From a virus (lineage: Duplodnaviria > Caudoviricetes), in IMG/VR virus record IMGVR_UViG_3300032330_001133, positions 1-29,144 of that record: a DNA stretch of 29,144 nucleotides; one strand, given 5' to 3'. The notes under the pieces are model-generated. The model was not told where the DNA came from, did not search any database, and saw only the letters and a program-made list of their open reading frames with translations. Below, one piece after another: positions 2,581-24,873 of the stretch. The first letter of the stretch is position 1. Each line of letters starts with the position of its first letter. The position numbers and the translations under genes are program-made.

Positions 2581-2670
2581 TTTTTAGTGACACCTTTTCT
2601 CCGCCTTGAGCAGTTAATTAAATTTTGAATGAAGTCTAAGTGTATCAAACTTTTTGTTAGCGGTCTAGGG

Positions 2671-4302: not shown

Positions 4303-4512
4303 ATGAGGATACAATACGTATCTAAATATATAGCATTATCAGAAGAAGGCCTTGTATCTAAAATGGCATGTCCAGTAGATCAGGGCCTTCTTTATCCTAA
4401 TTTGGATAATGAAGATAATATATTTTTATATTGCTCTACGTGTGACTATTCAAAAACACTTGGGCTTGCTTTATATGACAAAATAGTAAAGGCGGTAGAA
4501 AATAATGGATGA
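4303..4512 (+). CDS. Small Zn-ribbon-like hypothetical protein
   Basis: CPVD...CSTC; GAGG SD; coupled to the next ORF. Confidence 0.7.
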   Translation: MRIQYVSKYIALSEEGLVSKMACPVDQGLLYPNLDNEDNIFLYCSTCDYSKTLGLALYDKIVKAVENNG

Positions 4513-4910: not shown

Positions 4911-4939
4911 TTGACTTAATATAAACTTACACTTATACT
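4911..4939 (+). promoter_or_regulatory. Near-consensus promoter driving a non-coding transcript
   Basis: TTGACT-N17-TATACT. Confidence 0.75.
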
Positions 4940-4946
4940 AAGTATT

Positions 4947-5032
4947 ACATAAGTTGAGCAATTTATTGCTCCTTATGTTTTGCCTTTAATGGCAGCATAT
5001 CCCAATCAGATCCGCCTCTGGTTGGGATTTTT
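4947..5032 (+). ncRNA. Candidate small RNA with three hairpins; the last has loop UCCGCC
   Basis: ACATAAG-TT-GAGCAA-ttta-TTGCTC-CTTATGT; TGCC-tttaat-GGCA; ATCCCAATCAGA-tccgcc-TCTGGTTGGGAT-tttt. Begins 7-8 nt after the -10 element. Confidence 0.6.
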
Positions 5033-5046
5033 GCTATAATAGACAT

Positions 5047-5205
5047 ATGCCAAGAGATCATTTTTCACAACAAATGAGTAATCCCTACTTTCAAACAAAA
5101 CACTACAAGGAAGAAAGTGCTGCTGCTAAAATGGAAATGGGCATAGAAAATAAAATTAAATCATTTTTTAAAAAATTTAAAATACCTGGACTAAGAAGAA
5201 AGTAA
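5047..5205 (+). CDS. Small basic hypothetical protein (52 aa), probably leaderless
   Basis: MPRDHFSQQMSNPYFQ...GLRRK; TATAAT at 5035-5040, 6 nt before the ATG. Confidence 0.6.
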   Translation: MPRDHFSQQMSNPYFQTKHYKEESAAAKMEMGIENKIKSFFKKFKIPGLRRK

Positions 5206-7417: not shown

Positions 7418-7430
7418 TTTGACTCCTTTG

Positions 7431-7505
7431 TAGGGATACTCGGATTTGAACCGAGAATCTATTGTATATAAGACAAGTGCTTTAACCAGATTAAGCTATA
7501 TCCCC
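7431..7505 (-). tRNA. tRNA-Ile, anticodon UAU; CCA not encoded
   Basis: GGGGATA-TAGCTTAATCTGGTTAAAGC-A-CTTGT-CT-TAT-AT-ACAAT-AGATT-CTCGG-TTCAAAT-CCGAG-TATCCCT-A cloverleaf. Confidence 0.9.
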
Positions 7506-11835: not shown

Positions 11836-11935
11836 TAGCCCACGCTCCACATATTGAGACAAACCATTGACGGATTAACACTATGTCAGTGCCTTACGCT
11901 ATAATATCCATATTCAACAACGAAAGGCGGACTCA

Positions 11936-17543: not shown

Positions 17544-17737
17544 GCGAATGGATCAGCTGTGATAAGTGTGGCCATGCAGTTCAAGCTTTATATTTAATTA
17601 AATTAGTAGACGGCGAGCTTTCTTTTTGCGGTCACCATTATAATAAATATAAAGAGGGCCTAGACAAAGTGGCCTATGAAGTGATAGAATTGAACAAGAC
17701 AGAAGATGTACCTCAACTAACAGAAATGGCGGAATAA
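17540..17737 (+). CDS. Small Zn-binding protein (CxxC...CxHH)
   Basis: CDKC...LSFCGHH; GTGA overlap. Confidence 0.7.
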   Translation: MSEWISCDKCGHAVQALYLIKLVDGELSFCGHHYNKYKEGLDKVAYEVIELNKTEDVPQLTEMAE

Positions 17738-18547: not shown

Positions 18548-19321
18548 ATGCCAAATTGGGTATATAACACCTTGACTATCCAAGGTCCAAAGTCTGAAAT
18601 AGATATGATTAAAGATAGATTAGGTAAGCCATTTACTATATCTGTAGAGAACTTTGGTATGGGTGATATTAGTGCCAATGGTTTTCCTATGAAGATTAAA
18701 GAGGTTACTTATTCTAACCCCGTTTTTGCTTTCCATAATATCCATTCATATAAGGATGACGGCATTACTGATGAGGAATATGCCTGCCAGCCAAATCATG
18801 GCGATATCGACATGAAGTCTCCTGATTGGTTTGCTAAATCTGTCGAATACGCCAAAACTCAAAAAGACTGGTATTCATGGAACAATTCTAATTGGGGAAC
18901 TAAATGGGATGTAGCCGTATCTGATGATGACAAATATCCAAACACAGAACTAATTGAATATAAATCAGACGGTGATGACAATTGGGTTGTATATAAGTAT
19001 GAGACTGCTTGGTCACCTGCGATTACTATTTTAACTAAACTAAGTAATCTTGTTCCTAACTCCCTGCTCACATTAGAGTATGAGGAGGAAACAGGTTGGG
19101 GTGGGGAGTATGAGATTGTCCGTGGTGATGTAAAAGAAATCATGGAATATGAAAATCGCTGCTATGCTTGCCAATCTTTAAATACATTAGAGTATTGTGA
19201 AGATGACTGCGGTGAATTTTGCTCTGAATGTAACCAAGGCTCTTGGCAAGATGAAGAGGCTATGAAAGAATGTCAGACCCACATGGTATTATTAGAATCT
19301 AAAGAAAAGGCGGATGCATAA
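18548..19321 (+). CDS. DUF1281/YubB-like ferredoxin-fold protein with Cys-rich tail
   Basis: MPNW.N.L, WYSWNNSNWGTKWD, YETAWSP, YEEETG; C-terminal CxxC repeats. Confidence 0.78.
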   Translation: MPNWVYNTLTIQGPKSEIDMIKDRLGKPFTISVENFGMGDISANGFPMKIKEVTYSNPVFAFHNIHSYKDDGITDEEYACQPNHGDIDMKSPDWFAKSVEYAKTQKDWYSWNNSNWGTKWDVAVSDDDKYPNTELIEYKSDGDDNWVVYKYETAWSPAITILTKLSNLVPNSLLTLEYEEETGWGGEYEIVRGDVKEIMEYENRCYACQSLNTLEYCEDDCGEFCSECNQGSWQDEEAMKECQTHMVLLESKEKADA

Positions 19322-20896: not shown

Positions 20897-20945
20897 ACAT
20901 ATTTTGATACAATCTAGGGTTACAACTTAAAAGGCGGAGGAACAA

Positions 20946-23282: not shown

Positions 23283-23749
23283 ACTTTAATCATTTCATAT
23301 ACAAAATTGCCTATGCGTCTATCTAAGAATGTAACCTTGAAGTTGGGTATATGCTCCCAATATCCTCTAGAATACTTCTCATATAGCTCATGGGTATGGT
23401 CAAAGTAATACATGCTATCTTCGTGATAACCTCTTTTATCTACTGGATCCCGCCAAAGTTCTGGATTATCATATGCTGGTAGTCTCAATATCAAAATGCC
23501 TCCTGGTTTAAGGATTCTATGAATCTCTCTGATCCAGTCAATAATTGGTATATTTAGCATCTGCATCACATCAATTGAATATACTCTATCCCATGAGTTA
23601 TCTTCCCATGGCCAAGGTATCGTGTTTAAATCATGAGTAACATCTATGTGATCTGAATGCTTCCAGAATCCATGATGGGTGCATTCTTCAAGTCCTGGCC
23701 TAAGCCAGGTGCCTGAGCCAAGTTCCAGCATCTTCATTTTTTTATTCAT
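23279..23749 (-). CDS. Class I SAM-dependent methyltransferase
   Basis: LELGSG motif I; HDLN..PWP.EDNS.D; EIHRILKPGG. Confidence 0.85.
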   Translation of the reverse strand: MNKKMKMLELGSGTWLRPGLEECTHHGFWKHSDHIDVTHDLNTIPWPWEDNSWDRVYSIDVMQMLNIPIIDWIREIHRILKPGGILILRLPAYDNPELWRDPVDKRGYHEDSMYYFDHTHELYEKYSRGYWEHIPNFKVTFLDRRIGNFVYEMIKV

Positions 23750-23762
23750 TTCCGCCTCTATG

Positions 23763-23833
23763 CTTTGGGTGATGGTATCGAACCATCGTTTACAGGTTCG
23801 GAACCTGGTGTACTACCATTATACGAACCCAAA
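23763..23833 (-). tRNA. tRNA with anticodon CCG (nominally Arg), atypical body, CCA not encoded
   Basis: TTTGGGT-TC-GTAT-AATGGTA-GTAC-A-CCAGG-TT-CCG-AA-CCTGT-AAAC-GATGG-TTCGATA-CCATC-ACCCAAA-G. Confidence 0.82.
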
Positions 23834-24676: not shown

Positions 24677-24770
24677 CAGGATCCTTTTCCCATGTCAACT
24701 TTCCATCTTTATATACTGGCCAATAGCCTAATGAACGCCAGTCCATCTTCATAATCTTAGGCTCTTTCAT
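24666..24770 (-). CDS. 34-aa microprotein
   Basis: MKEPKIMKMDWRSLGYWPVYKDGK...; GGCGGA upstream. Confidence 0.5.
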   Translation of the reverse strand: MKEPKIMKMDWRSLGYWPVYKDGKLTWEKDPDES

Positions 24771-24873
24771 TATCCGCCACCGAATAATATGACTCTAGAT
24801 CAAACTCTTTATCAAACTCAGCTTCATTCATATAGTAAATATACTATATGCGAGGAATTGTGTCAATAGGTAT

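Follow-up and report, generated by a model that had tools for sequence, protein, structure and literature searches.

The window analyzed here, the whole 29,144-nt stretch of IMG/VR record IMGVR_UViG_3300032330_001133, encodes a ribonucleotide reductase, a glycosyltransferase, GroES, and an HNH protein, and carries a candidate small noncoding RNA. Carriers of this RNA are WhiB-encoding actinophages of 105–117 kb. WhiB, which the available text of PMC10202952 suggests as an indicator of actinophages, is encoded in 5/5 related near-complete records of 110–117 kb (relatives, not the window itself), and the nearest cultured relatives by nrdJ (66% identical), Streptomyces phages of the Stanwilliamsviridae, infect Actinobacteria; together these two features mark the family as actinophages. 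No tyrosine integrase was found in any of the five related genomes tested, and the family is apparently lytic. Its GC content of 36–39% points to a low-GC freshwater actinobacterium as the putative host. At the RNA locus the window is syntenic with Streptomyces phage Genie2 (MK359332.1), and the locus has no nucleotide match in cultured phages. Two matches in prokaryote genomes (L189 and L190) are contigs of the same phage family, found in bins labelled Saccharibacteria and Bacteroidia and probably mis-binned.

Elsewhere in the window lie a tRNA-Ile(TAT) at 7430–7505 and, on the minus strand, a tRNA-Arg(CCG) at 23762–23833 that stops just a few bases ahead of gene 23749's GGCGGA. Apart from these two tRNAs, no Rfam 15 model (6C, C4, and RsaE included) reached its gathering threshold in the window. 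Between 11000 and 21300, and in homologues, early-region genes are preceded by a promoter-like cassette, TGTCAG...TATAAT/TACAAT, followed by ACGAAAGG.

A structured RNA with an invariant loop

4911 to 4939, plus strand: predicted host-type promoter TTGACT-N17-TATACT, near consensus
4945 to 5034, plus strand: small noncoding RNA of three hairpins, ends predicted
4947 to 4980, plus strand: P1 hairpin, with a conserved bulge in which G-U-Y-G-(U)-A-G faces Y-U-C-C
4983 to 4996, plus strand: P2 hairpin, variable and absent in four loci (L069, L111, L126, and L290)
4999 to 5033, plus strand: P3, a 12-bp terminator-type stem (pairs within 4999–5028) and U tail
5011 to 5016, plus strand: invariant loop UCCGCC, closed by an A-U pair, the predicted seed

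The initial annotation had described a promoter reading into three hairpins, the last a 12-bp stem with a TCCGCC loop and a T tail, and all of these coordinates are correct. The promoter matches 10/12 consensus bases; the pattern alone is not significant (61 sites in the window vs. 51.8 in shuffles), and a promoter-like pattern lies at most 135 nt upstream of the RNA in 74/112 distinct homologous contexts. The plus strand of 4945–5040 folds at −38.9 kcal/mol (z = −6.75; 0/200 shuffles equally good), with an unpaired probability of 1.0 for the UCCGCC loop. A covariance model scores the window copy, which is part of its training set, at 78.2 bits, and the best Rfam match around the locus has E = 0.08, far short of threshold. 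A conserved secondary structure with its own promoter and terminator, here all read as sequence patterns, is expected of a trans-acting base-pairing sRNA, and the unit shows it. An RNA on the minus strand was rejected: its fold is weaker (−35.5 vs. −38.6), and the G-U pairs point to the plus strand.

The P1 bulge is a possible protein site. It spans 4953–4977, is missing in one subtype (L330 and L341), and consists of a U-Y bulge followed by GAG:CUC, with a possible resemblance to a TAR-type arginine-binding site. Right behind the terminator (5035–5047), a TATAAT stands 6 nt before the ATG of a 52-aa ORF; the spacing suggests a leaderless mRNA, and the layout recurs in homologues.

Stems of this RNA covary while its loop does not. 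Among 53 copies below 93% identity, chosen for loop and promoter pattern, 93.5% of cells are paired and 17/28 pairs show two-sided change (0/500 shuffles as high), including all seven pairs of the lower P1 stem; with the register of the same alignment slid, pairing drops to 33–45%. Distant copies have replaced the whole P3 stem, dropped P2, or altered P1 while keeping A-UCCGCC-U. An unbiased test of the loop used 207 loci chosen by neighboring proteins only, searched with a loop-masked profile. It matched 146 of them, of which 145 read ATCCGCCT and one was mis-picked, and in 35 further loci TCCGCC caps a stem of 8 bp or longer. The RNA is present in 181/207 loci; among the 26 without it, eight have a plain terminator instead and 18 are short or inconclusive. 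A loop-agnostic scan recovered TCCGCC in 120/129 short loci, the other nine resembling unrelated hairpins, and a search for loop variants across RNA copies found none. Covariation and the masked search thus bear out the proposal of a discrete RNA with a fixed loop on covarying stems.

We estimate that about 630 IMG/VR stretches carry the RNA. It occupies one locus in 36/40 longer records, extra matches being a weak opposite-strand echo. It is also dispensable, since it is missing from three records that are 96–100% complete (G001, G011, and G015). Two loci have the P3 hairpin with the invariant loop and without the usual 5′ part, one as a second copy (L350:4428–4515) and one alone (L019:5149–5183). 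Genie2 gave no model match in its 41-kb syntenic part and has no such hairpin genome-wide. It does have an unannotated unit of its own (L352:18215–18315, minus strand), with a TTGACA promoter pattern and a terminator-type hairpin loop, GGGCCAGC, that is complementary to an 8-base stretch near the unit's own 5′ end. This unit sits between a lysozyme-like operon and a glycosyltransferase, is found only in Genie2, Yaboi, and Sollertia, and has no Rfam match.

GGCGGA at gene starts

The exact complement of the loop, GGCGGA, occurs before several genes of the window:

20933 to 20938, plus strand: start of gene 20946 (function not assigned), conserved predicted target
17728 to 17733, plus strand: start of gene 17739 (phrog_31860), conserved predicted target
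2600 to 2605, minus strand: in the leader of nrdJ, forming the 3′ side of a small hairpin directly ahead of the SD, possible target
11926 to 11931, plus strand: start of gene 11936, sporadically kept
23751 to 23756, minus strand: 1 nt before methyltransferase gene 23749, with a 9-nt match to the loop region
19309 to 19314, plus strand: ahead of gene 19321; the single homologue recovered lacks it
24773 to 24778, minus strand: ahead of an ORF of 34 aa at 24770, not conserved

The hexamer ends 4, 5, 6, 7, 1, and 2 nt before 11936, 17739, 19321, 20946, 23749, and 24770, respectively, and lies 19 nt upstream of the nrdJ start, in agreement with the initial annotation. Its further observations, a match extended to 9 nt at 23749 and GGCGG variants ahead of 4505, 17540, and 22453, were also confirmed.

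Abundance of the hexamer is mostly a matter of composition and is equal in RNA-less phages, and hence is not evidence of a regulon. GGCGGA occurs 28 times in the window against 3.87 expected. Antisense TCCGCC is likewise enriched (61 vs. 13.2 expected), and the Gly-Gly codon pair GGC-GGA is the top codon pair (201 vs. 72.5 expected). Observed/expected ratios of GGCGGA are 3.8, 4.1, and 4.7 in RNA-less genomes vs. 3.6, 4.9, 4.5, and 4.5 in their RNA-bearing sisters. With codon pair, antisense, and RNA-less genomes all enriched, we rejected the genome-wide count as evidence, and the idea that enrichment is tied to the RNA fails to that extent. Tandem Gly anticodons acting on codon pairs were also rejected as a role for the loop, the GGC-GGA excess being family composition. 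The family avoids internal GGAGG, and both strands show an excess of GGCGG and CCGCC. None of the 16 family genomes contains CCGG, and CGCG is nearly missing too; this scarcity, not seen in Genie2, suggests evasion of host restriction.

At gene starts, GGCGGA precedes 49 first-ATG starts against 14.8 expected, about a threefold excess (3087 ORFs, 17 genomes), and only about 2–5% of starts bear it. Our site survey covered 16 records of 86–117 kb and the window, with gene starts taken from simple ORF rules. Among 95 families present in at least 7/11 diverse genomes, four keep GGCGGA (in at least 60% of genomes), one of them in 10/10 genomes at 40% mean identity. The only hexamers kept in at least four of the 95 families are SD pieces, TATAAT, and GGCGGA. 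At starts the motif is oriented, 69 forward vs. 5 reverse. The proposed regulon of many genes thus shrinks to a small set that keeps the hexamer: the sites at 19321 (one homologue found) and 17540 are not kept in homologues, and homologues of 24770 have GGCGGA in 0/11 and GGCGGT in four.

Two genes of the window lead this set. The 20946 site reads GGCGGA in 11/11 RNA-bearing genomes and the 17739 site in 10/10 (window included in both), each against 1/3 RNA-less genomes. Allowing GGCGG(A/G) at most 9 nt from the start, a site is found in 12/14 genomes of the 20946 family, 11/13 of the 17739 family, 9/16 for a replication-cluster gene of 69 aa, and 7/14 for a DnaB-like helicase. Neither the 20946 nor the 17739 product has a Pfam or PDB sequence match (atlas best score 0.77); the predicted structure of the 17739 product has pLDDT 86.6. 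Start-anchored queries recovered the site of a further gene in 11/13 RNA-bearing and 1/3 RNA-less genomes. We take this gene to be DnaE-like from its length, an N-terminal motif, and synteny with Genie2 gp82. The site of nrdJ is present in 150/167 RNA-bearing loci (62/72 distinct contexts) and in 1/3 distinct RNA-less contexts. An earlier view of nrdJ as the only conserved site, drawn from a sample of homologues that was too small, did not survive comparison of whole genomes. At nrdJ the hexamer forms the 3′ arm of a replaceable leader hairpin, so its conservation may in part reflect nothing more than structure: other hairpins replace it in 17/167 RNA-bearing loci and an unrelated one does so in Genie2. 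A hairpin just upstream of the nrdJ SD (window 2600–2615, minus strand; L352:19440–19470) is kept as a structure in the family and Genie2, with differing sequences.

The remaining sites are less constant. That of 11936 is found in 5/13 genomes and 5/39 distinct leaders, and also in RNA-less G001 and G015; gene 23749 has no homologue among the 16 genomes; and the GGCGG variant at 4505 sits at a variable junction. Sites that are otherwise conserved are also absent in some RNA-bearing genomes (dnaE in 2/13, nrdJ in 17/167 loci, and the small replication gene in 4/13).

The 17739 site shares its bases with the final codons of the preceding gene, where 11/13 genomes spell it xxG GCG GAA, although just 4.9% of Ala codons are GCG. 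Synonymous AAA GCA stands there instead in RNA-less G001 and G011, two synonymous changes away from the nearest site-bearing genome, L512 (itself classed as neither RNA-bearing nor RNA-less).

Site loss goes with loss of the RNA, incompletely. In one clade, RNA-bearing records have the 20946 site in 20/20 cases and the 17739 site in 19/19 visible, and among five plain-terminator records of the same clade both sites are lost in four and kept in one (G015), which has lost the dnaE and nrdJ sites. Across the four core sites (20946, 17739, dnaE, and nrdJ), 43/46 are present in RNA-bearing genomes vs. 5/12 in the three RNA-less genomes, each of which retains one or two. Control SD-like hexamers under matched selection are kept at 91/121 (75%) in the same three genomes (P = 0.037, with related genomes treated as independent and core families picked for conservation in RNA-bearing genomes). 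All three RNA-less genomes have the same replacement terminator and are related more closely to one another than to the rest, so a single loss of the RNA is probable. Because the loop never varies, the data hold no compensatory change of loop and site, only co-loss in this one RNA-less clade. In Genie2, GGCGGA precedes 0/5 homologous genes. Co-occurrence of RNA and sites, a check named in the initial annotation, therefore holds in part: genomes lacking the RNA have lost core sites more frequently than carriers have, but they keep some. We regard the co-loss as suggestive, not proof.

A candidate repressor and its alternatives

The structure is conserved and its loop invariant, the sites are conserved and oriented, and site loss is more frequent without the RNA. 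An exposed, conserved putative seed complementary to conserved sites at translation starts is what a trans-acting sRNA would be expected to show. Our preferred reading is that a structured phage sRNA with an exposed UCCGCC loop pairs in trans with GGCGGA at ribosome-binding sites, and that translation of a few mRNAs of the same phage would thereby be blocked. Predicted targets are the 20946 and 17739 families, the DnaE-like polymerase, two members of the replication cluster (a small gene and the DnaB-like helicase), and probably nrdJ. Early and replication genes would be damped while the RNA accumulates in lytic infection. We have moderate confidence in this account, in which the phage represses its early and replication genes by loop pairing, each of its steps (transcription, pairing, repressive sign, and purpose) being one that we infer.

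The predicted pairing is compact. A six-base loop/site duplex is worth about −11 kcal/mol, with the loop fully open; opening the target costs 0.5–7.6 kcal/mol, and a seed of 6–7 bp in a 6-nt loop is short. Complementarity is limited to the loop, often with one base more (A precedes the hexamer in 49/73 sites). If working, such an RNA would be a compact, chaperone-free translational switch for Actinobacteria.

We think it unlikely, if a serious contender, that GGCGGA is instead read by a phage or host protein, either a translational repressor or an endonuclease in the manner of T4 RegB, which cuts GGAG, or is a mere tolerated SD variant, with the loop serving another partner and the complementarity coincidental. 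Site spacing does peak at 5–6 nt, the SD position, sites persist in complete RNA-less genomes, and the hexamer is enriched genome-wide with or without the RNA. But the sole non-SD, non-promoter hexamer kept in four families is the exact complement of an invariant loop, and GGTGGA, about equally common in coding DNA, is rarer at starts (25 vs. 69). Site loss is also raised in RNA-less genomes, and in a presence/absence screen based on crude gene calls no protein family clearly tracks the RNA.

The initial annotation had left a repressor and an adaptor side by side. As a private anti-SD adaptor, the RNA would pair in trans with GGCGG-type sites and promote ribosome loading on marked phage mRNAs; if true, this would amount to a phage-specific translation initiation code in which replication and early genes are marked GGCGG. 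GGCGG is one mismatch off GGAGG and mostly at SD spacing, and in RNA-less G001 and G011 the 20946-family site has become the more canonical GAGGTGG. The loop context GGAUC-CG-CCUC also resembles the 16S tail. Against this, spacing ranges from 1 to 7 nt within the 20946 family, 10/73 sites lie 0–1 nt from the start, a canonical SD piece of at least 4 nt remains in −20..−3 at 59/73 sites, some sites are kept by complete RNA-less genomes, and a stem of 12 bp sitting on the SD would be expected to hinder the 30S subunit. Variable spacing and the remaining canonical pieces favor repression by occlusion, and we give the adaptor little chance.

A host 16S tail that itself reads CCGCC is disfavored as well. 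Phage starts use canonical SD pieces (GAAAGG 97 vs. 3.0 expected and AAGGAG 49 vs. 2.0 expected, 714 starts), which argues for a canonical tail, and matches to the variant-tail pattern in metagenomes fall in a 16S context in 0/66 cases (a search with no positive control and no host genome).

The RNA could also be aimed chiefly at co-infecting or superinfecting relatives, whose early and replication genes it would silence by way of the hexamer they share. Family phages with a mean protein identity of about 55–65% do not differ in loop or sites, and the lack of a tyrosine integrase in the five genomes tested fits as well, but selection should then favor site loss, yet RNA-bearing phages keep their sites; to us this is as remote a prospect as the adaptor. 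Least credible of all is that the unit does no more than terminate the upstream operon and has no function as an RNA. Although P3 is terminator-shaped and RNA-less phages carry a plain terminator there, the unit has its own promoter pattern and two more covarying hairpins, and its loop is invariant although the stem beneath gets replaced.

Relation to known RNAs and start-associated motifs

Repression by loop pairing, as preferred here, has relatives among bacterial sRNAs. Each of the two hairpin loops of the 6C sRNA displays about six consecutive C residues. In Mycobacterium and Streptomyces, its C-rich loops pair with several mRNAs, including dnaB, without Hfq or ProQ, according to the available text of PMC6486639. 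On that description the two are alike in their actinobacterial setting and in direct pairing of a C-rich loop with several mRNAs. They differ in that 6C is chromosomal with C-run loops, whereas the phage RNA has one invariant UCCGCC hexaloop on a terminator stem and its P1 loop is variable. RsaE and related UCCC-motif sRNAs of Staphylococcus aureus bind mRNAs through an unpaired C-rich motif and prevent formation of the initiation complex (PMC2790875, available text). The phage RNA likewise has a C-rich unpaired seed, CCGCC, which instead matches a variant SD, and both it and its predicted targets are viral. Because complementarity is confined to an open loop, as in the accounts of 6C and RsaE at hand, loop-seeded pairing fits the phage RNA.

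Phages have small RNAs of their own, among them C4 of bacteriophage P1 and CI of P4, which regulate phage development. So do lambda OOP, VpdS, PreS, and 24B_1, which in the available part of a review are mostly cis-antisense, Hfq-dependent, or from temperate phages (PMC12197685). As described there, they lack a counterpart of the family-wide invariant seed and several phage targets seen here, and "actinobact" has no occurrence in that part of the review. T4 RegB, a phage protein endonuclease acting on GGAG, shuts early mRNAs via an SD-region motif (PMC1702504, available text); both are phage factors at such a motif, the predicted reader here being an RNA and not a protein.

The literature searched and Rfam yielded no description of this RNA/motif pair. 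The comparison covered the supplement text of PMC10690425, without a match, and the RNA may be among the unnamed candidates of that study or of PMC5737381. The chemistry is known and the family appears to be new; what would be unusual is a phage-internal regulon built on a variant SD, in which the RNA of an apparently lytic family has its own multi-gene phage regulon. The closest parallel in layout is the SAS of Cluster K mycobacteriophages, a family-conserved, oriented motif a few bases before the starts of nonstructural genes, for which the authors left open, in the available text, whether RNA or protein binds it (PMC3203893). That motif is 13 bp long and contains AGGAG (consensus GGGATAGGAGCCC, PMC3203893), whereas the sites described here are 6 nt with free flanks and come with a complementary phage RNA. 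This RNA is thus a concrete candidate partner for a start-associated motif, the very question left open for the Cluster K SAS.
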